Made by a program: the position numbers and the translations under genes. A model generated the notes under the pieces. The model had not been told where the DNA came from. It ran no database searches and saw only the letters and a list, made by a program, of their open reading frames with translations. Of a stretch of 64,000 nt of DNA, positions 20,614-60,948 are shown in pieces. The first letter of the stretch is position 1, and each line of letters opens with the position of its first letter. The DNA comes from an uncultured Actinomycetes bacterium (GTDB lineage Bacteria > Actinomycetota > UBA4738 > HRBIN12). The stretch spans positions 18,068 to 82,067 of the forward strand of contig CAVVOG010000001.1 of NCBI GenBank assembly GCA_963749895.1, written 5' to 3'.

Positions 20614-21039
20614 TCAGACCGGGGTGTCGGCGCGGTTGGCGGCCACCTCGGCGAGCGTCGTCTCCCCGACCGTCGCCTGGATCTGAGGCCGGATCTCGCG
20701 CCAACGGAAGTGGAGCTCGCAGGGGTTCTCGGAGGAACACTCCTCGCGCCAGAACAGGCAGCGTCCCTCGAACACGTCGGGCCCCTCGACCGCCAGGAGG
20801 ACTTCGCCGATCGTGATCTCCTCCGGGGGACGCGCCAGCAGGTACCCGCGCCCCCGGCGAGACTCCAGGACCCCGCCCTCGGCGAGCATCCGCATGATCT
20901 TGTGCAGGTACGCGAGCGGCAGGTCCGCCGCTTCCCCGATCTCGCGAGCGTCCACGAAGTCGCCGGCAGGTCGGTCGGCCAGCACCAGCAGGGCCTCGAT
21001 CGCGTAGCGGCTCTCGCGCGCTAGCCGCATCTCCTCCAC
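20614..21039 (-). CDS. Rrf2-family transcriptional regulator with a three-Cys Fe-S cluster motif (IscR/NsrR type)
   Basis: N-terminal wHTH MRLARESRYAIEALLVLA; Cys motif C-x6-C-x5-C (CLFWREECSSENPC). Confidence 0.85.
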   Translation of the reverse strand: MEEMRLARESRYAIEALLVLADRPAGDFVDAREIGEAADLPLAYLHKIMRMLAEGGVLESRRGRGYLLARPPEEITIGEVLLAVEGPDVFEGRCLFWREECSSENPCELHFRWREIRPQIQATVGETTLAEVAANRADTPV

Positions 21040-21067
21040 CTCCCGGCGCCACCGCGCCCGTCCGTGA

Positions 21068-21925
21068 TCACAGGTCCCGCCTCGGCAACGCCCACCGGGC
21101 GAGCACCAGCGGTCCGACCGTCCATGCCGCCAACGACCCCGCCAGCACGCCCACCGAGCCCACGGTCCCGAACGTCGAGACCAGGTAGGCCCCGAACGGC
21201 CCGAGCGCCGTCCCGCGGAAGTTCGTGCCCAGCAACGCGAGGATACGTCCGGCCTCCAGGGGGTTCAGGACGATCGCGGCCAGCAACCCCTGGGGCCCGA
21301 GGTGGACCGACGGGGCGAGCGCCGCCAGCGCGAGGTCCACGCCCAGCGAGAACACGATCCACAGGCCGACACCGCCGGCCACCGCCTGCGCCCGGTTCGA
21401 CGCGAACGACGACAACGCCACCCCGATCGCGACGCTCGACGCGGCGACCCCCAGGGTCGCCCCGATCAGGGTCACCAAGGCGGGGACGTCGCTGCCGCGC
21501 GCCACGCTCGACATCACGAGCAGCGCGACCCCGTAGCCGACCCCGAGGGTGACCCACATCGACCCGGTGAGCCCGAGGAACGCACCGGCCACGATCGACG
21601 AGCGCCGCATCGGCTGGGCGGCCATCATCGCCAGGAGCCCCTGTTCGCGGGCCCCGACGATCGCGCCGGAGCCCAGCAGCAGCCCCATCAGCGACGGCAG
21701 CAGGATCCCGAGGTTCACGAGCGTCGCCGAGGCGGGGCCGATCCCCGACAGCCCCAGCTCGCGGACCGTGCGGAACCCCAGGAGCGTCACGGTCAGGCAC
21801 AGCACGCCGAAGATCGCCGCCATCACCAGCACCCAGCGGGCACGCACGCTGGTGCGGAACTCCCATCCCGCGATCGTGCGGGCCGGCGAACGTCGCCGCG
21901 GCACCGGGGTCGTGACCGCGCTCAT
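21068..21925 (-). CDS. nosY: ABC-2 type permease, NosY-like
   Basis: 6-TM permease whose ATG overlaps the nosF stop (ATGA). Assigned by its position in the nosDFY triad. Confidence 0.75.
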   Translation of the reverse strand: MSAVTTPVPRRRSPARTIAGWEFRTSVRARWVLVMAAIFGVLCLTVTLLGFRTVRELGLSGIGPASATLVNLGILLPSLMGLLLGSGAIVGAREQGLLAMMAAQPMRRSSIVAGAFLGLTGSMWVTLGVGYGVALLVMSSVARGSDVPALVTLIGATLGVAASSVAIGVALSSFASNRAQAVAGGVGLWIVFSLGVDLALAALAPSVHLGPQGLLAAIVLNPLEAGRILALLGTNFRGTALGPFGAYLVSTFGTVGSVGVLAGSLAAWTVGPLVLARWALPRRDL

Positions 21926-22626
21926 CCCGCCGCCTCCAGCCCCTCGTCCTCAGCCGGCTTCGGCCCATCGAACGGGGTCCCGGTGAAGTCCTCGTCGAGC
22001 GCCAGGCGGCCGTCCTCCACCGTGATGCCGCGGTCGGCGACCCGCCGGAGCTCCGAGGGGGCCGGTGAGCTCACGATCGCGGTGACCCCTCGCTCGTCGC
22101 GCAGGCGGCGCAGGACGCCCCAGAACACCTCGCGGCCCTCCTCGTCCAGGTTCGCGACCGGCTCGTCCAGCAGGAGCAGGGTCGGATCTCCGAGCAGCGC
22201 GATCGCGAGCGCGACCCGGTGACGCTGGCCACCCGAGAGCGTGCCGATCCGCGCGTCGTCGTCACGGACGAAGCCCTCGGGGAGCGGCACGGTGGCCCGG
22301 TCGGCGCCGCGGAGATCGGCGAACAGGTCGAGCATCTCGCCGACCGTGGCGTGCTCGGGCATCCCGACGGTCTGCGGCAGGTAGCCGATCCGCTCCCGAT
22401 GCGCCGGCGTGGCGTCGAGCTCGGCGCCGTCGAGACGGATCACGCCCTCGTGGCGGACGAGCCCGGCCACGCACTTCAGGAAGGTGCTCTTGCCGCTGCC
22501 GTTCGGCCCGCCGAGCGCGACGATCCTGCCCGCGGGCACGTCGAGGTCGACGCCGTGCAGCCCGAAGCCGCCCGGGTACACCTTGCGGAGCGCCTCGACG
22601 CGCAGACGTGACGTGCGCTCGCTCAT
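21922..22626 (-). CDS. nosF: ABC transporter ATP-binding protein, NosF-like
   Basis: Walker A GPNGSGKST, signature LSGGQRHRVAL, Walker B LLLLDEP. The ATG at 22626 overlaps the nosD stop (ATGA). Confidence 0.85.
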   Translation of the reverse strand: MSERTSRLRVEALRKVYPGGFGLHGVDLDVPAGRIVALGGPNGSGKSTFLKCVAGLVRHEGVIRLDGAELDATPAHRERIGYLPQTVGMPEHATVGEMLDLFADLRGADRATVPLPEGFVRDDDARIGTLSGGQRHRVALAIALLGDPTLLLLDEPVANLDEEGREVFWGVLRRLRDERGVTAIVSSPAPSELRRVADRGITVEDGRLALDEDFTGTPFDGPKPAEDEGLEAAG

Positions 22627-24122
22627 GCCGCCACCACCCTGCGGGGTCGCCGGCGCGCACGGACCAGGAGCCAGCCGCAGCCGAGGGTGAGCGCGAGCCC
22701 GGGGATCCACAGCGGTGCCCGCGGCCCGATCCGCTCGGCGGCCAGTGGCGGCGACGACAGCTCGGTCAGCGGTGCGTCGTCGAGCACGAGCGGCTCGGCC
22801 GGCGCCCACCGCTCCTCGACCGCCGACAGCAGCCGGAACGCCGGTCCGGAGGCGAGCGCGAGCAGGACGGGATCCTCCGCGATCAGCTGGCTCGTCCGGC
22901 CGCTCCGCGAGTACGCGAGGTCACCGGTGCCGTCGCCTCCGGCGTCGAAGCCGCCGTAGTCGCTCCAGTAGTTGCCCACGCCGTCGACGGTCCAGACCGC
23001 CTGCGTGCGCCCCGTCCCCCCGAGGGCCACCTGCGTCGTGTTCTCCACGAAGCCGTTGTCCGTGAACCACGCGTCGGCCGACGGGAACAGCAGGACGCCG
23101 ATCTGGTTCACCGCCACGGTGTTCCGAACCAGTCGGGCCGGCTCACCCCCCGTGCGGCCCGCGTCGTCGATGTGCACCGCGACGCGGTTGTCGGCGATCA
23201 CGTTGTCGCGCAGCAGCACGCCGCCGGCGTCCTTCACCAGGACGCCGAACCCGGTCGACGGGCTGCCGTTCTCGGTGATCGTGTTGCCCTCGACCGCGAC
23301 GGGCCCCCCGTACATCAGGACGATGCCGGAGAGGTTCCCGCTCAGGTCGTTGCCGCGGAACGCCACGTCGGCCGCGTACATGTCGTGGAGGCCGTAGCGG
23401 CTGTCCGACACGCGGACGCCCTCGATGACGCAGCCGGTCCCGTACGTCAGCTGGACGCCGTCGCGGACCGTCTCGATCACGCTGTCGCGCACGATCGTCC
23501 GTTCGCTGTCGAACAGCCAGATCCCGTCGCCGCGGAGCTTCGTAGGTTCGGCCTCGCCGCCGGCGTCGGTCGCGACGTCGCTCACCGCGTGGAGCTCTCC
23601 GGAGATGATCCCGCTGCCGCGGACCGTCACGCGCTCGATCACGACGTCACGGGCGCGCTGCACGGTGATGCCCATGTAGGAGTCCTGGACCTCCAGGTCG
23701 TGAAGGTACGCCCGGTGTCCCCCGCGCTTCACCAAGATCCCGGACGGCGCGCCCACCGGGAAGCGCTCGCTCCCGCGAACGAGGATGCCCGACACCTCGA
23801 CGTCGGGGGCCGCGACCGTGAGCACCGAACCCTCGCCCTGCCCGTCGAGCACGACGCCGGGCGCACCGACCAGCGTGATCGGCGCGTCGATCGTGAAGTT
23901 GCCGGTGTGGGTGCCGGCCGGAACGGTGACGGTCGACCCCGGCACCGCCGCGTCCAGCATCGCCTGCAGGTCACCCGTGGCGCCGGCGGGGGCCACGGGG
24001 AGCACCGTCGCCCCTGCGAGGGCGAGGCCCCCGAGCAGGAGGCGGACGGCGACGCGGACGCCCGCCACGGCGCTACCCCGTGACCGACGCGGGTTCGTCG
24101 GCCGGCGACGCGGCCTCGTCAC
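22623..24122 (-). CDS. nosD: periplasmic copper-binding protein NosD (right-handed parallel beta-helix repeats)
   Basis: Signal peptide followed by repeated beta-helix units (TVRGSG.., NVIADNRVAVHI.., FVENTT..). The exact start is uncertain (24122, or an internal Val near 24068). Confidence 0.85.
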   Translation of the reverse strand: MTRPRRRPTNPRRSRGSAVAGVRVAVRLLLGGLALAGATVLPVAPAGATGDLQAMLDAAVPGSTVTVPAGTHTGNFTIDAPITLVGAPGVVLDGQGEGSVLTVAAPDVEVSGILVRGSERFPVGAPSGILVKRGGHRAYLHDLEVQDSYMGITVQRARDVVIERVTVRGSGIISGELHAVSDVATDAGGEAEPTKLRGDGIWLFDSERTIVRDSVIETVRDGVQLTYGTGCVIEGVRVSDSRYGLHDMYAADVAFRGNDLSGNLSGIVLMYGGPVAVEGNTITENGSPSTGFGVLVKDAGGVLLRDNVIADNRVAVHIDDAGRTGGEPARLVRNTVAVNQIGVLLFPSADAWFTDNGFVENTTQVALGGTGRTQAVWTVDGVGNYWSDYGGFDAGGDGTGDLAYSRSGRTSQLIAEDPVLLALASGPAFRLLSAVEERWAPAEPLVLDDAPLTELSSPPLAAERIGPRAPLWIPGLALTLGCGWLLVRARRRPRRVVAA

Positions 24123-24738
24123 CGTCCTCGTCGGACCGTCCGGCCGTCACGAACTCCTTGACGAAGCCCCAGTACATCGGGCCGAGCGTGACGAGCGCCG
24201 CGGCGCCGAACAGGCACCACAGCGCCTCGCCCGGCCACGCGATCGTCTTCACGTTGCTCGCGACCGCGACCTTCCCGATCACCCAGGGGGTGAACGGCTC
24301 GACGTCGATCGGGGCGGCAGGATCGATCGTGTGACCCATCTGGTACAGGCGGTACTGGATGTCGATCAGCACCCCGATCGGGATCAGCCAGAGCAGGACG
24401 ATCGCGCCGCGTCGCCACCATCCCGAGAGGACGGTGGCCACCGCGATCAGCGCGATCGCGGCGACGAGCGCCGGGTTCCACAACACCGTCTCCGCCAACT
24501 CGCCCATGTCGAAGACCTTCACCCCGACGTAGTGGTTCAAGATCGCGATCTCGTCGACGTCGCCCTCGATCCGATCGCCGTAGGCGGTCAGGACCAGCTG
24601 GCGGTTCGGGTACTGCAGGACCTCGAGCCGGGCCTGCCAGACGGGCAAGCCGAAGGCCAGGACGACGAGGACGACGGCCACCGCGCCGAAGACGACCCGG
24701 ACGAGCCGGTCCCCTCGAGCGCTCCGGTCAGCCGTCAT
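24073..24738 (-). CDS. polytopic membrane protein of unknown function inside the nos cluster (possible NosB-like)
   Basis: 5-6 predicted helices, no signal or lipobox; located between the cupredoxin gene and nosD. Confidence 0.55.
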   Translation of the reverse strand: MTADRSARGDRLVRVVFGAVAVVLVVLAFGLPVWQARLEVLQYPNRQLVLTAYGDRIEGDVDEIAILNHYVGVKVFDMGELAETVLWNPALVAAIALIAVATVLSGWWRRGAIVLLWLIPIGVLIDIQYRLYQMGHTIDPAAPIDVEPFTPWVIGKVAVASNVKTIAWPGEALWCLFGAAALVTLGPMYWGFVKEFVTAGRSDEDGDEAASPADEPASVTG

Positions 24739-24767
24739 CCTCGATCGTCCCTCCGAACGTCAGGACC

Positions 24768-25238
24768 TCATCCCACCGTGAGCGTGCCGACCATCGTGGC
24801 CGGGTGGGCGAAGCAGTTGAAGGTGTAGGTGCCCGCGGGGAGCGCCGGGATCTCGTACACGACCTCGGCGACGCCGTTGATCAACTCGTTGTTCGCGGGC
24901 GCGAACACCGGGGTCACGGTCGTGTCGGTGCCCTCGAAGATCTGAACGTTGTGCGGGATGCCCGTGTCGTCGTTCTTGAACAGGATCGTGAACGGGGTGT
25001 CGGCGGGCGCGGACAGCTCCGTCTCGGCGAACCCGGTGTTCGAGGACCCGACCGGCGCGGTGATCGTGAGTTCGGTCGACGGCGCCGTCGTCTCGGTCTC
25101 GGTCGCGGCCGACGACGAAGTGGACGTCGCCGCGCTGGAGGTCGTGGTCGTCTCGTCGGCCGGGCTGTCGCCGCCCGAGCAGGCCGACAGGACGAGCCCG
25201 GCGACCACCGCGACCGCGGCGATCCGGATGAACCTCAT
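24768..25238 (-). CDS. cupredoxin (plastocyanin/azurin-type blue copper) lipoprotein
   Basis: RBS AAAGGAG; lipobox LSAC; type-1 copper ligands His (PHNVQIF) and C-x2-H-x3-M (FNCFAHPATM). Confidence 0.8.
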   Translation of the reverse strand: MRFIRIAAVAVVAGLVLSACSGGDSPADETTTTSSAATSTSSSAATETETTAPSTELTITAPVGSSNTGFAETELSAPADTPFTILFKNDDTGIPHNVQIFEGTDTTVTPVFAPANNELINGVAEVVYEIPALPAGTYTFNCFAHPATMVGTLTVG

Positions 25239-25341
25239 GCGTGCTCCTTTCGATGCGGATCCCTCGTGAGCTGCGTGGAACGCGAGGGGGGCGCCGGGTG
25301 GCGCCCCCACCATGGTAGGGGCGCCACCCGGCTTGGGGGGG

Positions 25342-27318
25342 TTAGGGCGCCACCTCGATCCAGCCCTGCATCTCGAGGTGGAGGGCGGAGCAGAACTCCG
25401 TGCAGTACATCGCGAAGGTCCCCGGCCGGTTGAGCGGCAGGTCGACGTTCACGACCTCGCCCGCGTCGATCGAGACCTCGATGTTGTGCTGAGGGATCGC
25501 GAACCCGTGGGTCGCGTCGGGCGTCTGCTCCACGTTCGTCAGGTGCAGCCGGAGGGTGTCGCCGACCTTCGCCTGGATCGTGTCCGGCGTGAAGTGGCTC
25601 CGCAGCACCGACATGTAGACGTGGACGTCCTTGCCGTCGCGCTCGATCTTCTCCTGCCCGGCTTCGATCGCGAACTCGGACCTCGCCCAGGTGGCGGGGT
25701 CCGTCCCCGGGTCGTACACCTGGATCGTGTGGACGAGCTTGTCCGCCTTGATCATCTGGACGTAGTGCGGCTCGCCCATGCCGATCGGCGCGTCGTACAG
25801 CACCTCCATCTGGTCGCCGGTCAGGTCGACCAGCTGGAAGTTCTGCGGGTGCAACGTGCCGAGCGGCGGGAAGCGGTCGATCGACCACTTGTTGAGCGCC
25901 ACGAGGTAGGTCCCGTCGGGGTTCACCGTGTCGCCCTCGGCGGTCACCAGGTGCCCGATGTTGTACTGGACCGGCAGCTTCTCCACGAGCTGGAACGCAT
26001 CCCCGTCGTGCCCGGCCTTCGGCCCGAGGGACCACTTCGCGACGGCCGTGTCGATGAACAGCGACGTGTAGGCGTAGCCCTTGTCGTCGAACTGCGTGTG
26101 GAGCGGCCCCGCACCCAGCTCGACCTGCGCGATCATCACGTCCTCGAGCTTGAGGATCGGCACGCCGTACTCGTCTTCGCCCTCGTAGGTGCCGGCGTCG
26201 ATCGCGGCCTTGATCTTCTCGAACTCGTAGACGCTGCCGTTCGGATCGAGCTTGCCGCCGATGCAGATGTAGTCGCCGGTCGGATTCACGTCGACGCCGT
26301 GCGGGCTCTTCGGCTCTGGCGCGAGCGTCAGGACCTTCTCGGCTGCAGCCACGTCGAGCGGGATCACGTTCATCCCGTTGATCTCGACCGTCTCGCCGGC
26401 CTTGAAGAGCTCCTCGGCCTTCTGCCAGTCGATGATGTGGAGGTAGTCGTAGTCGTTCGCGGAGGCGCCGGCCTCGAGCGGCTGACCACCCTGCGAGGTC
26501 CCGACCGCCATCTCCGAGTTGTACGAGTTGATGAATCCGTAGCCGAAGCTGGTCAGCTTGCCGGCGTCGGCGAGGTCCTGCGTGTACGGGGGAAGTTCGA
26601 TCTGGAAGGTGCTCGCCTTGTCGAACCTGCCGGTCTCCTGGTCGATCGCGATCCACGTCGAGAACCCGCGGAACTCCTCCTTGAACCTCGACAGGGGCGC
26701 GTAGCCGTTCACGGGGGTCGGCGTCATCGTCGAGATGTGCACGTACTCCGAGTTGGGCGTCACGAAGCACCCGCCGTGCGAGGTCTGGAGGTTGGGGATG
26801 TCCCAGATCTCCTTGGTCTTGAAGTCGCGGAGATCGATCATCGCGATCCGGCCGTTCGCGCGGTCGTTGATGTAGAGCCAGCGACCGTCGTAGTCGCCCT
26901 CGGTCTCGGACAGCGCCGGGTGGTGCGTGTCACCCCAGTACACCGGGTTGCTCTTGTCGGGGTCGATCCCACCCTCGAGCACGAGGTTCCCCTGATCGCT
27001 GCCGTAGCCGTACCCCTGCCACGCATCGGGTGTGAAGACGGGGATCACCTTGAGGACGCGCATCGAGGGCACACCCATCACGATCATCTGCCCGGAGTGC
27101 CCGCCGGACGCGAACATGAAGTACGGGTCGTACTCGCCGGGTGGGACGAACGTCTTCTGCGCGGCGCTCGACTGGTCACCCGTCAGCCCCTGCCCGGAGT
27201 CGCCGTCGTCCCCGCCGGACGAGGAGAACCCGACCCTCGCCCCGGCTGCCCCGACCACGACGCCGCCCGCGAGCATGCCCAGCGCCGCTCGGCGAGAGAC
27301 CTGCGGTCCACCTGCCAT
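25342..27318 (-). CDS. nosZ: nitrous-oxide reductase NosZ (Tat-dependent)
   Basis: Twin-arginine signal SRRAALGMLAGG and a beta-propeller body. C-terminal CuA site HGF...YCTEFCSALHLEM. RBS GAAGGAGGAG lies before the ATG at 27318; an alternative upstream ATG exists at 27354. Confidence 0.95.
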   Translation of the reverse strand: MAGGPQVSRRAALGMLAGGVVVGAAGARVGFSSSGGDDGDSGQGLTGDQSSAAQKTFVPPGEYDPYFMFASGGHSGQMIVMGVPSMRVLKVIPVFTPDAWQGYGYGSDQGNLVLEGGIDPDKSNPVYWGDTHHPALSETEGDYDGRWLYINDRANGRIAMIDLRDFKTKEIWDIPNLQTSHGGCFVTPNSEYVHISTMTPTPVNGYAPLSRFKEEFRGFSTWIAIDQETGRFDKASTFQIELPPYTQDLADAGKLTSFGYGFINSYNSEMAVGTSQGGQPLEAGASANDYDYLHIIDWQKAEELFKAGETVEINGMNVIPLDVAAAEKVLTLAPEPKSPHGVDVNPTGDYICIGGKLDPNGSVYEFEKIKAAIDAGTYEGEDEYGVPILKLEDVMIAQVELGAGPLHTQFDDKGYAYTSLFIDTAVAKWSLGPKAGHDGDAFQLVEKLPVQYNIGHLVTAEGDTVNPDGTYLVALNKWSIDRFPPLGTLHPQNFQLVDLTGDQMEVLYDAPIGMGEPHYVQMIKADKLVHTIQVYDPGTDPATWARSEFAIEAGQEKIERDGKDVHVYMSVLRSHFTPDTIQAKVGDTLRLHLTNVEQTPDATHGFAIPQHNIEVSIDAGEVVNVDLPLNRPGTFAMYCTEFCSALHLEMQGWIEVAP

Positions 27319-27336
27319 GGTGCTCCTCCTTCTCTC

Positions 27337-27353
27337 TGGACCTTTCTGGTCCA
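27337..27353. promoter_or_regulatory. perfect palindrome TGGACC-N5-GGTCCA, 19 nt upstream of the nosZ start; candidate operator
   Basis: Read directly from the sequence. It is part of a GGACC/GGTCC-rich array spanning 27337-27485. Confidence 0.4.
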
Positions 27354-27400
27354 TTGCCCCGTCACCGTGGCACCGATCGAACGTCGGAGGGAAGCGCGAA

Positions 27401-29653: not shown

Positions 29654-32203
29654 CTACGGGCACGTATCGAACGTGTTGGTGCCGCCGCCCCCACGACAGA
29701 CGTCTCTCCCGGCCCCGCCGCTGAGGTGATCGTTCCCCGGCCCGCCCTCCAGACGGTCGCGCCGGTCGCCACCGGAAAGGAAGTCGCCCCCGGCCCGGCC
29801 GATCAGCACGTCGCGGCCGCCGAAACCGTAGAGGGAGTTCGGACCGGCGTCGCCGCGGAGACGGTCGTCGCCCAGGAGGGTGCCGTACACGTGGTCGATC
29901 CGCCGGTACCGGTCCGTACCCACGATCGGTCCCCACCCGCGGCCCTTCGCCAGGTTGACCTCGACCCGCTTGCGTGTGCACCGGTTCCCCACGCAGCTGA
30001 AGTAGCTCACGGTGTCGCGTCCGGAGACCCCGTCGATGAGATCGTCGCCGCCGAGACCGGTGAGCACGTTGTCACCGTCGTCGCCCCGCAGGACGTCGTC
30101 GCCAGAGCCGCCGAAAGCACCCTCGAGCCCCCGCAGCGTCGATCGGTCCTGTCCGACGAACGCCCGCTCGGTCCCGAGGTCGACCTCGACCGGTCGACCG
30201 AGGTTCGAGTAGGACACGTAGTCGTAGCCGCCGCCGCCAAGGACGAGGTCCTCGCCGCCGCTCGGATAGATCACGTCGTCTCCGCCGCGTGCACACAGCA
30301 CGTCCGTCAGCGGTGTCCCGACCAGCTGATCGTTGCCCGACGTGCCGTCGTGCGTGCACGTCGTGGCGTCGAGCCCCTCGATCGTCACCGATGCCGCATC
30401 GTCGGTGGGGTCGGGGTCGTCGGCGCTCGTGACGGCCGCCTCGAGCACGACCGGGCCCGTGCGACGGAGCTCGACGTCGATCGAGAGCCGAGCGACTTCC
30501 CCACGGGAGAGCGCCCCGACGGGGCAGTCGATCCGCCCCGAGGATCGGACGCAGAGACCGGGCGCCTTCACCACCGTCGCGCCCGACCCGGTGTCGAGGG
30601 ACAGCACCACGCCGTCCGGGCCGGTCGGCCCGTTCGCCACCGCGACGAGATCGACGTCCACCGCGCGTCCCTTCAGCGCTCGAGGGGGGACCCGAGTGAT
30701 CGCGACGGCGACGTCGGCGCCCGATGACGGCGGCGGCACCACGCGGGCCCACGTCGTCCGCCACCGGTCACCGTCCACGCTCGGGGTCGCCGCCGACGTC
30801 TGTACCGTCCACAGGCTGCCGTCTGACGGGTCGGCCACCGTGGCGCTCGTGTCACCCCAGCGGTTCGTGCCGTCGACGTCCGGGACCGCGTACGGAGCCT
30901 CACCGGGCGCGAAGACGACCTCGCCGCCGAGCGTCCCGATCGCGTCGGCGACGGTGCGGAGCCGGTACGCACCGCTCGCGTACCTGCTCTCGGAGAACCT
31001 CGTGTATCCGAGGAGGAGGTCGCCGGCAGGGTTGACGGCGAGCGACGGGAACGCCGACACGACCCCCAAGCGGCCCTGCTGGAGCACGGTTCCCTCGGGG
31101 AGGAACTGCCACCACTGCACGGAGGCGCGCGTGGGCTCCGACGCCGGCAGGAAGACCGTGTGAGCGCACCAGATCGTGCCGTTGCGCATCGTGCACGTCT
31201 GGAGGCGGGTGTCACCGGTATCGATCGCGACCGCCGAGCCACGCTGCGGTGCGTCGACCGCGGTCGTCGACCACCTCGACCCGACGACCGCGGCGGCTCG
31301 TGAGATGTACTCGGGCTCCGCCGTGGTGCCCGAGAGCGCCCCGATCGTGAGCGCGCGACCGTTGCCGTCGTCGCTCGCGATCAGTTGTGCCCCGACGAAC
31401 GCGTCCATCGTCGTGACCGGCGCCAGGCCCCGGCGTCCTCCGTCCACCACGCGCGCCAGCGTCATCGCGGGATCGTCGTCCTCCGCCTCGGTGCGGTCGA
31501 ACCCGAGCAGCAGCGACCCGGCGGCCCGTCCGTCGGCGATCACGTCTCGGTCGGTCGCCACCGAGATCCAATCCGCGGAGAACCCCACACGCGTCGAGCG
31601 CACCTCGCGATCGCCGCCCGCGGCGGCGTCGACCCGGACCATCCACCAGCCACCGGTCGGGTCGGAGGTCTTCGAGACCGCGAGCACGACGCCGGCCTCC
31701 CTGCGACCGGGATCCACGCAGGCGGCCATCACGAAGCGTTTGCCGAACGGCTCCCAGACGACGACCGGGTCGACGACGTCGACGATCGACGGGTCGAATG
31801 CGCGCCACCAACCCAGCAACGAGGACGCGGCGAGCACCCCGCCGTCCTTCGAGGAGACCCGTACCCCGTCCGCGACGACCTGCACGAGGTGCGAGGTCCC
31901 CACGGCGCCGTGGGTGTCGGGGGGCGACACCGTCGCGTCTCCCTCGATCCCGGGGATCGTCGCCGCCGGATCGGGTGAGGCGGCGAGGATCGTCCGTTCC
32001 CCACGGCGTAGGTCGGTCGACGGGATCGCCTCCGCCGCGATCAGTCGCTCGCCGTCCACGATCACCTGCGACCTGTCGGGTCCCGCGCTCCGACCGAGCA
32101 GCGAGGGCGGCGGGACCGAGACGGCGCCGGCGACGGTCGGCGCGACGGTCGACGACACCGCGAGCGCGGCGATCACGACGGCGAGGGCGCGGGTCCGGAG
32201 CAT
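29654..32203 (-). CDS. large secreted protein with C-terminal RTX (hemolysin-type Ca-binding GGxGxD) repeats
   Basis: Sec signal MLRTRALAVVIAALAVSSTVAPTVAGA; about 500 aa of unknown domain, then tandem nonapeptide repeats (GGSGDDVLRGDDGDNVLTGLGGDDLIDG...). Confidence 0.8.
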   Translation of the reverse strand: MLRTRALAVVIAALAVSSTVAPTVAGAVSVPPPSLLGRSAGPDRSQVIVDGERLIAAEAIPSTDLRRGERTILAASPDPAATIPGIEGDATVSPPDTHGAVGTSHLVQVVADGVRVSSKDGGVLAASSLLGWWRAFDPSIVDVVDPVVVWEPFGKRFVMAACVDPGRREAGVVLAVSKTSDPTGGWWMVRVDAAAGGDREVRSTRVGFSADWISVATDRDVIADGRAAGSLLLGFDRTEAEDDDPAMTLARVVDGGRRGLAPVTTMDAFVGAQLIASDDGNGRALTIGALSGTTAEPEYISRAAAVVGSRWSTTAVDAPQRGSAVAIDTGDTRLQTCTMRNGTIWCAHTVFLPASEPTRASVQWWQFLPEGTVLQQGRLGVVSAFPSLAVNPAGDLLLGYTRFSESRYASGAYRLRTVADAIGTLGGEVVFAPGEAPYAVPDVDGTNRWGDTSATVADPSDGSLWTVQTSAATPSVDGDRWRTTWARVVPPPSSGADVAVAITRVPPRALKGRAVDVDLVAVANGPTGPDGVVLSLDTGSGATVVKAPGLCVRSSGRIDCPVGALSRGEVARLSIDVELRRTGPVVLEAAVTSADDPDPTDDAASVTIEGLDATTCTHDGTSGNDQLVGTPLTDVLCARGGDDVIYPSGGEDLVLGGGGYDYVSYSNLGRPVEVDLGTERAFVGQDRSTLRGLEGAFGGSGDDVLRGDDGDNVLTGLGGDDLIDGVSGRDTVSYFSCVGNRCTRKRVEVNLAKGRGWGPIVGTDRYRRIDHVYGTLLGDDRLRGDAGPNSLYGFGGRDVLIGRAGGDFLSGGDRRDRLEGGPGNDHLSGGAGRDVCRGGGGTNTFDTCP

Positions 32204-56697: not shown

Positions 56698-57525
56698 ATG
56701 TTCACGAACCACGTACTCGACGCCGGCGGGGTGCGCTGCCGCGTCCTGGTGGACGGGTGGCGCGCCGTATCGCCTCGGTTCGTGTTCCGCGGGTACGACG
56801 AGGACGTCCACGGGCCGCTCGTGCGCCCCGGGATGGACGCGGACGGACTCCTGCCCGGCCGTTTCGCGGCGCTGCTGATCGAGAGCCCGGACGGGCTGGT
56901 CCTGGTGGATGCGGGCATGGGGCCGTTCGCGGGCGAGATGGAGGCCGGCCGGCTCACGGGGGAGCTCGACGCGCTCGGCATCTCCCGGACCGACATCGGG
57001 ACCGTCGTCGTCACCCACGGACACGCCGACCACGTCGGGGGGCTCGTCACGAACGACGGCGTCCCCGCCTTCTACGAGGCACGACACCTCGTCCACCCCG
57101 CCGAGCTGGCCTTCTGGCGCTCTCCGGCGGCCCGGGAGCTGCCGGGCGACGCGGGCGAGCCCGCCCGGGTCGCCTTCGGTGCCCTGCGCGCCGGCGGCCT
57201 CCTGGACGAGGCGACCGGCGGAGCGCCGGTCGCCTCGGGCGTCCGGATCCTCGAGGCCCCCGGGCACACCCCCGGCCACCTCGCCGTCGTGGTCAACGAC
57301 GCGCTGCTGTGGGCCGGCGACGCGATCGTCCACCCGGTCAACGTGCCGCATCCCGAGTGGGTGAGCGCCGCCGACATGGACGCTCGCAACGCCCAGACCC
57401 GCGTGGAGCTGCTCGAACGCGCCGCCGACGACCGGCTCATGCTGGCGGGAAGTCATCTGCCCGTCGAGGGCACGGTCCGCCGCGAGGCGGCCGGATTCGC
57501 GTTCGACATCGCGTCGCCCGGTTGA
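56698..57525 (+). CDS. MBL-fold metallo-hydrolase (lactonase-like), paralogue of the gene at 27489..28352
   Basis: THGHADHVGG motif and the ...APGHTPGH... ligands. It is divergent from the ilv leader. Confidence 0.8.
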   Translation: MFTNHVLDAGGVRCRVLVDGWRAVSPRFVFRGYDEDVHGPLVRPGMDADGLLPGRFAALLIESPDGLVLVDAGMGPFAGEMEAGRLTGELDALGISRTDIGTVVVTHGHADHVGGLVTNDGVPAFYEARHLVHPAELAFWRSPAARELPGDAGEPARVAFGALRAGGLLDEATGGAPVASGVRILEAPGHTPGHLAVVVNDALLWAGDAIVHPVNVPHPEWVSAADMDARNAQTRVELLERAADDRLMLAGSHLPVEGTVRREAAGFAFDIASPG

Positions 57526-57572
57526 CCCGGGTGACCACCCCGAAGCCGGTCCGGCTAGCATGGGGGTACCCG

Positions 57573-59132
57573 ATGCAGGCTTCCATGCCAACGGCGTTCG
57601 AGTCTCCACTCGTCGTCGTCTCGAACCGAGGCCCCGTGTCCTTCAGCCGCGATGAGGGCGGGGCCCTGATCGGCGAGCGTGGGTCCGGCGGCCTCGTCAC
57701 CGCCCTGGCCGGCGTGCTGTTCGAGTCCGATGCCACGTGGCTCGCCGCGGCGATGACGGATGCCGACCGCGAGGTCGCCGCGACCGGCCGGCCGATCGAC
57801 GTCGAGCCCGCCGGACGGGCGTCGTTCGTCGACATCGACCCGGTCCGCTACGAGGGCTACTACAACGGCATCGCGAACCGGGTGCTCTGGCTGATGCACC
57901 ACTACCTGTTCGATCTGGCCTATCTGCCGGCGTGGGACACCGAGACCCGACTGATCTGGAACGACTACCGCGAGGTGAACGCGACCTTCGCGAAGGCCCT
58001 CGACGCCGAACGCGACCGCGACCCCGTCTACCTGGTGCAGGACTACCAGCTGAGCCTGGTCCCTCAGATGCTCCGGGACATGCAACCGAACGCCCGGATC
58101 ACGCACTTCACGCACACTCCCTTCGCCGGCCCGACGTACCTGCGGCTGCTGCCGGCGGGGATGCGCGAGGAACTGCTCCGCGGGCTGCTCGGCGCCGACA
58201 TCCTGGGGTTCCAGGCCGATCGCTGGGCCGAGAACTTCCTGCTGGCCGTCCGCGACACCCTGCACGACGCCCACGTGGACGTGCGACGGCGGCGGATCGA
58301 CATCGACGGCCGGCGGGTGCTGGTGCGCGGCTACCCGATCGCGCTGGACCCCGTGCCGCTGCGCCGCACGTCCACCTCCCGCGAGGTCAAGGAGCTGCGC
58401 CGCGAGTTGGGGGCGTGGCGCGGCGACGCGAAGCTCTTGCTCCGGGTCGACCGGCTGGAGCTGTCGAAGAACATCGTGCGCGGCTTCCACGCGTACGACA
58501 CCTTCCTCACCGAGCACCCGGAATGGCGCGGGAAGGTGCGGTTCCTGTCGATCCTGCCGCGCTCACGCACCGAGATCCCCGAGTACGTGTCGTACGCGGA
58601 GCGGACCCTGGAGACGGCCGCCGAGATCAACGCGCGGCACGGAGGCCAGGACTGGACCCCGCTCGAGGTGAGGACCGAGGAGGACTACATCGGGGCGGTG
58701 GCCGCCTACGGTCTGTACGACACGCTCCTGGTGAACCCGATCTTCGACGGGATGAACCTCGTCGCGATGGAAGGGCCGCTGGTGAACAAGCGCCACGGGA
58801 CCCTGGCGCTGTCGGTGAACGCGGGCGCGTACGGCCGGCTCGGCCGCCACGCGATCGCCCTCAACCCGTTCGACGTCGTCGAGACCGCCGAGGCGATCCA
58901 CCTCGGCCTGACGATGCCGGAGGACGAGCGGACCCGCCGGGCCCGAGGGCTGATGCGCTCGGTCCTCGCCAGCAGCCCGACCCGATGGCTCACGGCGCAG
59001 CTGCGAGATCTCGACGCGGTCCGCGGGGTCGTCGCACGTCCTCGTCCCAAGCCGTTCGCGGAGGAGCCGTTCGACGGCGAGCCGGCGGTGCCCGACGAGC
59101 TGAACGGCGGGCTCCACAGGCCCGAGGGCTGA
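57573..59132 (+). CDS. otsA: alpha,alpha-trehalose-phosphate synthase (GT20)
   Basis: LVVVSNRGP start region and GT20 motifs (LWLMHHYLF, VQDYQLSLVPQMLR, HFTHTPFAG); the upstream part of ORF 56637..59132 is discarded. Confidence 0.85.
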   Translation: MQASMPTAFESPLVVVSNRGPVSFSRDEGGALIGERGSGGLVTALAGVLFESDATWLAAAMTDADREVAATGRPIDVEPAGRASFVDIDPVRYEGYYNGIANRVLWLMHHYLFDLAYLPAWDTETRLIWNDYREVNATFAKALDAERDRDPVYLVQDYQLSLVPQMLRDMQPNARITHFTHTPFAGPTYLRLLPAGMREELLRGLLGADILGFQADRWAENFLLAVRDTLHDAHVDVRRRRIDIDGRRVLVRGYPIALDPVPLRRTSTSREVKELRRELGAWRGDAKLLLRVDRLELSKNIVRGFHAYDTFLTEHPEWRGKVRFLSILPRSRTEIPEYVSYAERTLETAAEINARHGGQDWTPLEVRTEEDYIGAVAAYGLYDTLLVNPIFDGMNLVAMEGPLVNKRHGTLALSVNAGAYGRLGRHAIALNPFDVVETAEAIHLGLTMPEDERTRRARGLMRSVLASSPTRWLTAQLRDLDAVRGVVARPRPKPFAEEPFDGEPAVPDELNGGLHRPEG

Positions 59133-59133
59133 G

Positions 59134-60948
59134 TCAGCGTCGCACGCGGACGCGGCGGGCCAGACGGGGGCGACGATCCGCCGGGCCGACCTCCCCCCGG
59201 CTGAGGTTCATCGCGGTGCCGATCAGCGACACGTGTGAGAACGCCTGAGGGAAGTTGCCGACCAAGCGGCGCCGGACCGGGTCGTACTCCTCGGAAAGGA
59301 GCCCCAGGTCGGTGCGAACGTCGAGCACGCGCTCGAACAGCTCTCGCGCCTCGTCGGTCCGACCCTGGAGCGCCAGGCAGTCGGCGAGCCAGCACGTGCA
59401 CGGGAGGAACGCGCCCTCGCTTCCGGGCAGACCGTCGACGTGGGACCCGGTGTCGTAGCGCAGGACGAACCCGTCCGCCAGCAGCCGTTCCGCGATCGCG
59501 TCGACCGTCCCGCGGACTCGGGGATCGGTGGCGGGCAGGAACCCGACGAGCGGGATCATCAGGGTCGCCGCGTCGAGGTGCTTCGAACCGTACGACTGGG
59601 TGAATGCCCCGAGCTCGTCGTCGAAACCCTCGCGACAGACCTCGTCGTGGATCTCGGTGCGCAGGGCGCGCCAGCGCTCGACCGGCCCGTCGAACCCGAA
59701 CAGCTCGACGTCGCGGATCGCGCGGTCGATCCCGACCCAGGCCATCACCTTGGAGTGGGTGAAGTGGCGCTGGCCGCCGCGGACCTCCCAGATGCCTTCG
59801 TCGGGCTCGCGCCAGCGCGACTCCAGGGCGTCGAGGATCCGCAGCTCCATCTCCCACGCGGCGGCCTCGTGCGGGAGCCCCTCCCGCGACGCCTGGTGCA
59901 GCAGGTCGAGGATCTCGCCGTACACGTCGAGCTGGAACTGGCGCGAGGCGTCGTTGCCGACCCGAACGGGGAGCGAGCCCTCGTAGCCGGTCAGCCACCC
60001 GAGCTCCATCTCGGGGATCCGGCGCTCACCCGCGAGCCCGTACATGATCCGCAGGTCGTGCGGGTCCCCGGCCACCGCGCGCAGGAGCCATTCGCGCCAC
60101 GCCCCCGCCTCGCGCTCGTAGCCGGCCTGCAGCAGGCTGTACAGGGTGAACGTGGCATCACGGAGCCAGCAGAACCGGTAGTCCCAGTTCCGCGATCCAC
60201 CGAGCTCCTCCGGGAGCGACGTCGTGACCGCCGCGACGATCCCTCCGGTCGGACGGTAACTGAGCGCCTTCAGGGTGATGAGCGACCTCATGACCGCATC
60301 GCGCCACTCGCCACGGTACGTGCACTGCGTGGTCCAGTCGCGCCAGAAGCGCGTCGTGGCGCGGGCCGCGTCCCACGGATCGATCCGCGGCGGCGGAAGC
60401 TCGTGCGAGCGGTGCCAGACCAGGATGAACGCCACACGCTCCCCGGCCCGGACCTGCAGGTCGGACGTGACCAGTCCGGTCACGACCTCGAGCGGGGCGT
60501 CGGTGCGGAGCTCCACGGCGTCGGGGCCCGCGACCGCGGTGACGCTCCGCTTCCCCTGCCGAAGCCACGGGACGGCGGCCCCGTAGTCGAAGCGCAGGTT
60601 CAGCTCCATCCGCATCGGAACCACGCCGCGTAGCCCCTCGACCAGCCGCACCACCCGGGCCTGACCCCGTCGCGGCGTCATGAAGTCGGTCACGCGGACG
60701 GAACCGGATCCGACCTCGTACTCGGTCTCGAGCACGAGCGTGTCGGGACGGTAGGCGCGCCGCGTCCGGAAGGGCTCGGACGGAGCGAGCAGCCAGCGTC
60801 CGTGCTCGGGCTCACCGACCAACGCCGCGAAGCACGCGCCCGAGTCGAAGCGCGGCAGACACAGCCAGTCGATCGAGCCGTCACGGCCGACGAGCGCAGC
60901 CGTGTGCGTGTCGCCGATCAGCGCGTAGTCCTCGAGCGGGAGCGCCAC
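59134..60948 (-). CDS. glycoside hydrolase family 15 protein (glucoamylase/trehalase-like)
   Basis: 604 aa with an (alpha/alpha)6 barrel and GH15 N-terminal beta-sandwich (LIGDTHTAALVGRDGSIDWLCLPRFDS). Confidence 0.85.
   Translation of the reverse strand: MALPLEDYALIGDTHTAALVGRDGSIDWLCLPRFDSGACFAALVGEPEHGRWLLAPSEPFRTRRAYRPDTLVLETEYEVGSGSVRVTDFMTPRRGQARVVRLVEGLRGVVPMRMELNLRFDYGAAVPWLRQGKRSVTAVAGPDAVELRTDAPLEVVTGLVTSDLQVRAGERVAFILVWHRSHELPPPRIDPWDAARATTRFWRDWTTQCTYRGEWRDAVMRSLITLKALSYRPTGGIVAAVTTSLPEELGGSRNWDYRFCWLRDATFTLYSLLQAGYEREAGAWREWLLRAVAGDPHDLRIMYGLAGERRIPEMELGWLTGYEGSLPVRVGNDASRQFQLDVYGEILDLLHQASREGLPHEAAAWEMELRILDALESRWREPDEGIWEVRGGQRHFTHSKVMAWVGIDRAIRDVELFGFDGPVERWRALRTEIHDEVCREGFDDELGAFTQSYGSKHLDAATLMIPLVGFLPATDPRVRGTVDAIAERLLADGFVLRYDTGSHVDGLPGSEGAFLPCTCWLADCLALQGRTDEARELFERVLDVRTDLGLLSEEYDPVRRRLVGNFPQAFSHVSLIGTAMNLSRGEVGPADRRPRLARRVRVRR

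Follow-up and report, generated by a model that had tools for sequence, protein, structure and literature searches.

A predicted cupredoxin lipoprotein encoded between nosZ and nosB as a likely electron donor to clade II nitrous oxide reductase in uncultured Actinomycetota

Introduction

Nitrous oxide reductase (NosZ) constitutes the sole biological sink that is known for the greenhouse gas N2O, and the route by which electrons reach the clade II form of this enzyme is poorly defined beyond Wolinella and a few Bacillota. Among Proteobacteria, the type-1 copper cupredoxin pseudoazurin, as found in Achromobacter cycloclastes and Paracoccus pantotrophus, is discussed as a donor to NosZ. One report cites this suggestion (PMC9240420). 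In clade II clusters of Bacillota, the gene preceding nosZ codes for the cytochrome c lipoprotein NosC, the presumed dedicated donor (PMC3475470). For haloarchaea it has been suggested that copper proteins take the place of c-type cytochromes (PMC11218638), and the plastocyanin-like protein Pcy of Haloferax mediterranei, which was co-enriched with Nos in membrane proteomics, has been proposed as the donor (PMC7754194). Here we analyze a stretch of 64,000 nucleotides from an uncultured actinobacterium (the window), in which a gene for a predicted cupredoxin lipoprotein of 156 residues follows a clade II-type nosZ gene. An earlier note on this DNA had proposed that this protein is the likely donor of electrons to NosZ. 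Synteny, copper ligands, predicted fold, the lack of other carriers nearby and archaeal precedent lead us to the view that it probably is.

Judged by architecture and gene context, the closest analogues of this cupredoxin are the blue-copper proteins of haloarchaeal nos clusters. Pcy (HFX_RS15890, annotated as "plastocyanin/azurin family copper-binding protein") comprises 173 residues, is encoded immediately upstream of nosZ, and combines a twin-arginine translocation (Tat) signal with a lipobox (LAGC), a linker rich in Gly, Ser and Thr, and a type-1 copper site. The same cluster also contains a nosB-like gene, nosD, nosF, nosY and nosL. A halocyanin of like architecture is encoded after nosY in the nos cluster of Halomicrobium salinisoli. 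The actinobacterial protein resembles both in that it is encoded within a cluster of nosZ, a nosB-like gene and nosDFY, and in that it joins a lipobox and an acidic low-complexity linker to a type-1 domain. The similarity extends to NosZ, which carries a Tat signal, and to the nosB-like neighbour, which is homologous. In contrast, the archaeal cupredoxins carry a Tat signal (Sec in the present case) and contain the ligand loop C-x2-H-x4-M instead of C-x2-H-x3-M. Furthermore, the gene lies upstream of nosZ in Haloferax and follows nosY in Halomicrobium, instead of being placed between nosZ and nosB, and Haloferax possesses nosL. A gapped alignment with Pcy shows 25% identity (pairwise E 0.006), and BLASTP returned no alignment with the Halomicrobium halocyanin. 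By sequence, the actinobacterial and haloarchaeal proteins have superfamily and architecture in common, but not family.

The principle of a lipobox–linker–type-1 copper protein, or of a blue-copper donor in nos clusters, is therefore not new. The earlier note saw interest in a membrane-anchored cupredoxin donor in a bacterium, but the precedents from Haloferax and Halomicrobium make the idea less novel than this implied. Among open-access papers, a literature search yielded no account of nos clusters from actinobacteria or of cupredoxins within them. New are the protein family, the spacing of its ligand loop, the constant location of the gene between nosZ and nosB, and the occurrence in uncultured Actinomycetota that combine a Tat-type clade II NosZ with no nosL found.

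Results and Discussion

A Predicted Tethered Type-1 Copper Protein

The earlier note had recognized a lipobox (LSAC), a long Thr/Ser-rich linker and a set of type-1 copper ligands in this protein, and all three features were confirmed. The N-terminus displays the elements of a bacterial lipoprotein signal, namely a positively charged n-region, a hydrophobic h-region and a lipobox of the type [LVI][ASTVI][GAS]C, and it gives weak NCBIfam matches to the N-termini of actinobacterial lipoproteins. In an alignment of 30 homologues, Ala19 and Cys20 of the lipobox are invariant, and a lipobox was found in those orthologous loci that could be parsed. The following linker (residues 21–55) contains 11 Thr, 9 Ser, 6 Ala, 5 Asp or Glu, and neither Lys nor Arg. 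Its length and sequence vary freely across the same alignment; the linkers of orthologues span 21–50 residues and consist mostly to more than 85% of Ser, Thr, Gly, Pro, Ala, Asp and Glu. In an AlphaFold2 (AF2) model, the predicted local distance difference test score (pLDDT) is 48–57 over the linker and approximately 50 over residues 1–55, which suggests that the N-terminal part is a flexible tether.

The remaining residues (56–156) form the copper domain. AF2, run with the alignment of homologues, predicts a seven-strand sandwich with high confidence (pLDDT 94–99), so that structure prediction, which the earlier note had listed as a check, yields a plastocyanin- or auracyanin-like cupredoxin. 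The predicted ligands are His96 within GIPHNVQIF and the series Cys142-x2-His145-x3-Met149 within FNCFAHPATM. All four are invariant across the 30 homologues, at identities down to 55%, and a HMMER profile alignment places them one-to-one on the His/Cys/His/Met ligands of plastocyanin. The polypeptide ends on a strand, seven residues past Met149. The sequence scores above the cut-offs of the Pfam families Cupredoxin_1 (PF13473; 34.8 bits, cut-off 27) and Copper-bind (PF00127; 24.8 bits, cut-off 21.2). When the PDB was searched with a profile, plastocyanins came first (E 4e-7), all four ligands being aligned, and auracyanins A and B came next. Foldseek ranked Roseiflexus auracyanin (6kol, E 9e-9) first among PDB structures, followed by a Nitrosopumilus cupredoxin and plastocyanins; the matches to auracyanin and plastocyanins had E values of 1e-7 to 1e-9. 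Hence, profile score, ligand set and the predicted Greek-key beta-sandwich all agree with membership in the type-1 cupredoxins. These findings support the assignment as a lipid-anchored type-1 (blue) copper protein, where we infer lipidation and copper binding from sequence.

More specific family labels did not fit. The protein is no plastocyanin proper, as it scores 24.3 bits against an equivalog cut-off of 87.85 (NCBIfam TIGR02656); the label "plastocyanin" that the JGI attaches to homologues is a domain-level name only. Type-1 copper proteins differ in the spacing of their ligand loop, which is C-x2-H-x4-M in pseudoazurin, (x2, x4) in plastocyanin and C-x2-H-x2-M in amicyanin, and pseudoazurin carries a C-terminal helical extension. 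Pseudoazurin and amicyanin were rejected because all orthologues contain the loop C-x2-H-x3-M and the present protein ends on a strand without such an extension. Matches to amicyanins in the PDB are weak (E 0.04–0.8).

In genomes as rich in G+C as this one (71% in the window), false long open reading frames are common, and several overlapping frames occur at this locus, so that the cupredoxin gene could be a chance frame or a decaying remnant. One of the overlapping frames in the six-frame listing runs antisense at 24949–25269. Its third codon positions contain 93% G+C because it has these positions in common with the cupredoxin gene. The G+C fractions at positions 1, 2 and 3 of the cupredoxin codons are 0.54, 0.57 and 0.97, which shows that this frame is genuinely coding, and a ribosome-binding site precedes it. 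The database contains 369 homologues at E ≤ 1e-3, nearly all of 140–170 residues, and the names given to them, where there are any, read [quoted passage not shown] or "plastocyanin"; conservation extends over the whole domain with invariant ligands. Together with the Pfam scores and the confidently predicted fold, these observations leave a spurious frame with virtually no probability, and we count this explanation as already refuted. The cupredoxin gene is real.

Conserved Position between nosZ and nosB

The cupredoxin is encoded directly downstream of nosZ, as the earlier note had stated: it is the next gene on the same strand, starts 103 nucleotides past the nosZ stop codon and ends 29 nucleotides before the following gene. 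The order on the minus strand is nosZ, cupredoxin, nosB-like, nosD, nosF, nosY and an Rrf2-family regulator. A scan of one genome per species yielded 78 loci, which were examined by tblastn with the Nos proteins of the window. All 25 loci with at least 55% identity (55–79%) belong to metagenome-assembled genomes (MAGs) of Actinomycetota or "Actinomycetes". The order from nosZ to the Rrf2 gene recurs in 24 of these 25 orthologous loci; in two of the 24, the contig end precedes nosZ. Nos genes are missing from the 53 loci of lower identity, most of which come from Chloroflexia and Limnocylindrales.

A scan of metagenomes provided 33 orthologous contigs. Where the flank was sufficient, which for the upstream side meant at least 400 nucleotides of sequence, NosZ was encoded upstream in 20 of 20 cases and NosB or NosD downstream in 24 of 24. 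Six metagenome loci with 55–69% identity and no nos genes were discarded as short-segment matches to oxidase-linked paralogues (E ~1e-21 to 1e-23). In most relatives, the gap between nosZ and the cupredoxin gene measures merely 20–35 nucleotides and includes a ribosome-binding site (GGAAGGA or GAAGGAG, similar to that of the window), which argues for co-transcription. A small, predicted extracytoplasmic redox protein is thus part of the cluster and kept across the lineage, as in the donor modules of nos clusters represented by NosC and Pcy. No match to the cupredoxin was found by tblastn among the plasmids of PLSDB, and look-ups of the exact cupredoxin and NosZ sequences of the window retrieved no database entry.

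The wider family occurs in other settings. In the two distant loci that we examined, both from Chloroflexia or Limnocylindrales MAGs (L040:9092–10330 and L042:9158–10282), a membrane protein of some 400 residues ends in the cupredoxin domain, which is fused to a membrane part of about 300 residues. The fusion gene directly follows genes for COX1 and COX3 and precedes genes for a thioredoxin-like lipoprotein and an ABC transporter; its product may be an oxidase-associated blue-copper subunit. These paralogues place the wider family in contexts of respiratory electron transfer. As a separate observation, one actinobacterial locus encodes a second lipoprotein-type cupredoxin on the minus strand approximately 4 kb past the Rrf2 gene of its nos cluster (L018:11006–11443). 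This protein is 30% identical to Haloferax Pcy over 177 residues (E 1e-6).

Electron Donor, General Carrier or Copper Chaperone

Other candidate donors were searched for in the window. None of its open reading frames of at least 80 residues contains the haem c motif CxxCH, and a Pfam sweep of the 64 kb revealed no cytochrome, NosR, NosL, nir, nor or nar genes, and no terminal oxidase genes near the cluster. Housekeeping genes occupy the flanks; they code for NAD-glutamate dehydrogenase, for the biosynthesis of branched-chain amino acids, for flavin oxidases and for ABC-2 transporters. With the invariant ligands, the cupredoxin fold and the conserved position of the gene, this lack of a haem c gene supports the proposal of the earlier note that the cupredoxin is the likely donor. 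The note further suggested that it substitutes for c-type cytochromes or NosR. The reference to NosR is imprecise, because clade II clusters carry nosB in place of nosR (PMC11409646) and a nosB-like gene is present. By analogy, NosC and not NosR is the apt comparison.

Starting from the established architecture, ligand invariance, fold and linkage to nosZ, the following route can be proposed. The cupredoxin would be made together with NosZ, exported by the Sec pathway and lipidated at Cys20, which in a monoderm actinobacterium would hold it at the outside of the cytoplasmic membrane. Its acidic Ser/Thr-rich tether of about 35 residues would let the copper domain sweep the outer face of this membrane. 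From there, the protein would act as a one-electron shuttle between a membrane-bound quinol-oxidising complex and the CuA site of the Tat-exported NosZ. The reductant is presumably the actinobacterial cytochrome bcc complex, which in Actinomycetota is the obvious quinol-oxidising candidate. In this scheme, the cupredoxin would take the place that NosC holds in Bacillota and that cytochrome c550 or pseudoazurin hold in Proteobacteria.

Several observations weigh against this assignment. First, the upstream reductant is not encoded in the window. Second, both partners are acidic: the cupredoxin domain carries a net charge of −10 (−6 to −16 among homologues), the CuA domain −10 and mature NosZ −50. 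Docking would therefore have to occur via a hydrophobic patch and not by charge complementarity; electrostatic steering as with the basic pseudoazurin is not evident. Third, the NosZ closest to those of the clade from outside, that of Thermomicrobium roseum (55% identity), is encoded in a cluster without the cupredoxin and with NosL. Finally, in the one exceptional locus of the genome scan (L022:8400–12900, CAVVDF010000006.1 of MAG MFD02199.bin.2.138; 55% identity), a cupredoxin with intact ligands is present, and nosZ as well as nosB, nosD, nosF, nosY and the Rrf2 gene are missing. The flanks match those of the window, with genes for NAD-glutamate dehydrogenase, a CAP-domain protein and a metallo-beta-lactamase on one side and for a DAO oxidase on the other, and a neighbour-joining tree of the copper domain nests this cupredoxin within the nos-linked clade (95 of 100 bootstraps). 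The simplest reading is that the nos genes were lost secondarily and an intact cupredoxin stayed behind. Hence, the cupredoxin can persist without adjacent nos genes, either because the loss was recent, because a nos cluster resides elsewhere in the genome, or because the cupredoxin has a second partner.

The latter case leads to an alternative in which the cupredoxin is a general membrane-tethered carrier that connects the bcc complex to a number of terminal enzymes, for example NirK or an oxidase, and is only co-located or co-regulated with nos. The intact copy that outlasted all nos genes at a syntenic site and the paralogues linked to cytochrome oxidase genes are consistent with this idea, as is the fact that known small blue-copper proteins, for example pseudoazurin and azurin, work with several partners. 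On the other hand, the gene sits between nosZ and nosB in all but one of the genome loci and on all informative metagenome contigs, the intergenic gaps are short, and the surroundings in the window contain no nir, nor or oxidase genes. We consider an exclusively general role unlikely, and it overlaps with a role as NosZ donor in that service to NosZ and to another partner are not mutually exclusive.

The situation in T. roseum is compatible with a second alternative, in which the lipoprotein replaces NosL and gives copper to the CuA and/or CuZ site of apo-NosZ outside the membrane. In a tblastn search with NosL from T. roseum and Haloferax, nosL was detected neither in the window nor in any of the actinobacterial nos loci, flanks of up to 10 kb included, although a NosL that is short and divergent can escape a search with two queries. 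No unassigned open reading frame is left within the nos cluster of the window (20614–27354). The related clusters of T. roseum, Haloferax and Hymenobacter do contain nosL, and the resulting pattern is complementary, as T. roseum has NosL without the cupredoxin and the actinobacterial clade the cupredoxin without NosL. Copper chaperones with a cupredoxin fold exist, namely PCuAC and CupA, and a "cupredoxin" without His ligands that adjoins the nos genes of Hymenobacter looks like a copper-handling protein. In contrast, the invariant His-Cys-His-Met set is the signature of a buried, tight redox site and not of a labile site for Cu(I) transfer. The cupredoxin also lacks similarity to NosL at E ≤ 0.01, so that identity with NosL was rejected. 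Haloferax encodes Pcy and NosL in one cluster, and the two are therefore not interchangeable there. NosL is reported to be needed mainly for the assembly of CuZ under copper limitation (PMC6530538), and it may be encoded elsewhere in the genome. On balance, we judge copper delivery as the function of this protein to be quite improbable.

The two functions could also be combined. In such an N2O-reducing module without haem c or NosL, the lipid-tethered blue-copper protein would link the quinol-oxidising machinery of the membrane to the Tat-exported clade II NosZ, possibly through NosB, and at the same time supply or buffer copper, thereby replacing both the NosC-type cytochromes and NosL. We regard this double role as very improbable. 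Electron donation to NosZ is the function that we favour.

Relation to Other Electron Carriers

NosC from Bacillus azotoformans and Geobacillus is similar to the cupredoxin in that it is a small lipoprotein carrier of a monoderm, encoded next to a clade II nosZ that precedes a gene for a four-helix NosB. It differs by its haem c, by its unrelated fold and by the location of its gene upstream of nosZ. Deinococcus ficus likewise has a gene for a c-type cytochrome directly before nosZ. Pseudoazurin differs as a soluble, basic periplasmic protein with C-terminal helices that serves clade I NosZ and NirK and is encoded outside the nos cluster, whereas the protein described here is acidic, predicted to be lipid-anchored and ends right after its last strand.

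Cupredoxins with a lipid anchor are known from halocyanin, auracyanin A and the Neisseria protein Laz. Auracyanins from Chloroflexus and Roseiflexus are membrane-anchored blue-copper carriers of respiration and photosynthesis with an N-terminal tether. They include the best structural match (6kol, with 2aan and 1qhq also among the matches; profile E ~1e-5), and paralogues of the present family adjoin oxidase genes in Chloroflexia. Their identity to the cupredoxin is only 25–26%, and they are larger (~125–140 residues) and show no linkage to nos. Plastocyanin, the best profile match, is similar in size, in its acidic surface and around the first ligand (GFPHNV, as compared to GIPHNV here), but has a ligand loop that is longer by one residue. 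Moreover, the present protein is a lipoprotein in a non-photosynthetic context. Laz is a cupredoxin lipoprotein with a low-complexity linker that serves denitrification-related enzymes. As a bacterial tethered cupredoxin it is comparable, but it belongs to the azurin family (C-x4-H-x4-M), is anchored to the outer membrane of a diderm and is not linked to nos.

The "cupredoxin" beside nosDFY in Hymenobacter was considered as a bacterial precedent and dismissed, because it lacks the type-1 His ligands. This 125-residue "cupredoxin domain-containing protein" (L166:12965–13342, on a plasmid of Hymenobacter sp. DG25B) is encoded convergently with the end of a Bacteroidota nosZ–nosB–nosL–nosDFY cluster. 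Its N-terminus is transmembrane and it contains the motif C...CGMGM; judged by its sequence, it probably handles copper rather than electrons.

Neighbouring Genes

The features of the locus are collected in Table 1. NosZ reaches 770 bits with TIGR04246, the "Sec-dependent" model for clade II (cut-off 625), and 416 bits with the clade I Tat model. Matches to nos_propeller and Cupredoxin_1 and the CuA motif CTEFCSALHLEM are also present. Instead of the Sec-type signal of clade II enzymes, we found a twin-arginine signal. The N-terminus (27250–27354) reads VSRRAALGML, followed by a hydrophobic stretch rich in Gly, Ala and Val, and contains no lipobox. The SRRxAL motif is kept in 15 of the 15 NosZ orthologues that were checked. 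The homologue from T. roseum contains SRRGLLG together with a lipobox (LASC). The combination of a clade II core, a Tat signal and nosB is known for a subgroup of Chloroflexota and for archaea (PMC11409646), and the present cluster looks like an extension of this subgroup to Actinomycetota.

The nosB-like gene is separated from nosZ by the cupredoxin gene alone. Its product gave no match in Pfam or NCBIfam, and its hydropathy profile indicates three strong segments and a weaker one at the C-terminus. It is 30% identical to the protein encoded after nosZ in T. roseum (E 1e-12) and 32% to that in H. mediterranei (E 1e-20). By operational definition, NosB is a membrane protein with four or six helices adjoining clade II nosZ (PMC11388526, PMC3475470). 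With about four segments and its homology to other post-nosZ proteins, the 221-residue protein fits this definition. The Rrf2 gene follows nosY in essentially all orthologous loci that are long enough to show it, which makes the encoded protein a candidate for a NO- or redox-responsive regulator of the nos cluster.

Two further parts of the window were recorded. A gene on the minus strand (29654–32203) codes for a secreted protein of 849 residues that contains a DUF11/CLIPPER domain and, at its C-terminus, RTX calcium-binding repeats. It is located 2.3 kb upstream of nosZ, with genes for a metallo-beta-lactamase and an M24 peptidase in between, and is kept at the same place in the closest relative (L001); a link to N2O reduction is not evident. 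Rfam and tRNA scans of the window returned nothing, and the region 57525–59134 (~1.6 kb) is likewise free of such matches and of open reading frames that pass a filter on third-position G+C content.

Table 1. Coordinates of the cupredoxin gene, its parts and the surrounding nos genes in the window (GC3, G+C fraction at third codon positions; ORF, open reading frame)
Feature	Position	Strand	Basis or remark
Cupredoxin lipoprotein gene, 156 aa	24768..25238	minus	ORF, GC3 0.97, Pfam scores, 369 homologues
Signal peptide and lipobox L-S-A-C, residues 1–20	25179..25238	minus	MRFIRIAAVAVVAGLVLSAC; Cys20 is the predicted lipidated N-terminus
Low-complexity acidic Ser/Thr/Ala-rich linker, residues 21–55	25074..25178	minus	SGGDSPADETTTTSSAATSTSSSAATETETTAPST
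Cupredoxin beta-sandwich domain, residues 56–156	24771..25073	minus	pLDDT 94–99, ligands invariant
Type-1 Cu ligand codons (predicted)	His96 24951–24953, Cys142 24813–24815, His145 24804–24806, Met149 24792–24794	minus	
Ribosome-binding site AAGGAG	25245..25250	minus	6 nt 5' of ATG; sequence CGAAAGGAGCACGC-ATG
G+C-rich hairpin, 18 bp, perfect, without U-tail	25293..25332	minus	nosZ–cupredoxin intergenic region, just past nosZ stop codon
nosZ, clade II-type core, twin-arginine (SRRAALG) signal	25342..27354	minus	TIGR04246, 770 bits
nosB-like membrane protein, 221 aa, ~4 hydrophobic segments	24073..24738	minus	Homology, conserved position
nosD, periplasmic beta-helix maturation protein	22623..24122	minus	Pfam NosD 114 bits; TIGR04247 281 bits (cut-off 300)
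nosF, ABC ATPase, start overlapping nosD stop codon	21922..22626	minus	Pfam ABC_tran; ATG at 22626
nosY, ABC-2 permease	21068..21925	minus	Pfam ABC2_membrane_2, 72 bits
Rrf2-family regulator, last gene of cluster	20614..21039	minus	Pfam Rrf2 105 bits; weak NsrR/IscR similarity

Translation Start and Intergenic Hairpin

On the minus strand, the cupredoxin frame opens with an ATG at 25238–25236 and closes with a stop codon at 24770–24768. A mechanical list of open reading frames offered a longer form of 181 residues that begins with another ATG farther upstream, at 25313. Homologues share the start at 25238, and the sequence AAGGAG lies six nucleotides before it.

The gap between nosZ and the cupredoxin gene also contains a G+C-rich hairpin. 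RNA folding of the region 25225–25350 gave −61.2 kcal/mol, with z = −3.8 relative to shuffled sequences. A gap of 103–127 nucleotides with a G+C hairpin of 17–19 bp is found in the window and in its two closest relatives (L005 and L006), and the hairpin of L006 differs in sequence. All other relatives combine the short gap of 20–35 nucleotides with the absence of a hairpin. This element may stabilize the transcript or, as a partial terminator, determine how much NosZ is made relative to the accessory proteins. A scan for consensus promoters and terminators produced nothing useful on the cupredoxin strand and did not pick up the hairpin.

Conclusions

The cluster described here comes from a widespread, uncultured actinobacterial lineage of soils and sediments. 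It points to a route from the membrane to NosZ that relies on a copper carrier instead of haem c in monoderms without soluble cytochrome c. Despite their distant sequences, haloarchaea and Actinomycetota present one solution, a lipobox–linker–blue-copper protein encoded in the nos cluster. If the assignment as electron donor is correct, the cupredoxin would provide a concrete and easily expressed candidate for in vitro assays of clade II NosZ, and N2O reduction in such organisms would pose an extra demand for copper. The set of nosZ, cupredoxin and nosB genes would then also serve as a marker by which N2O reducers of this type can be recognized in metagenomes.

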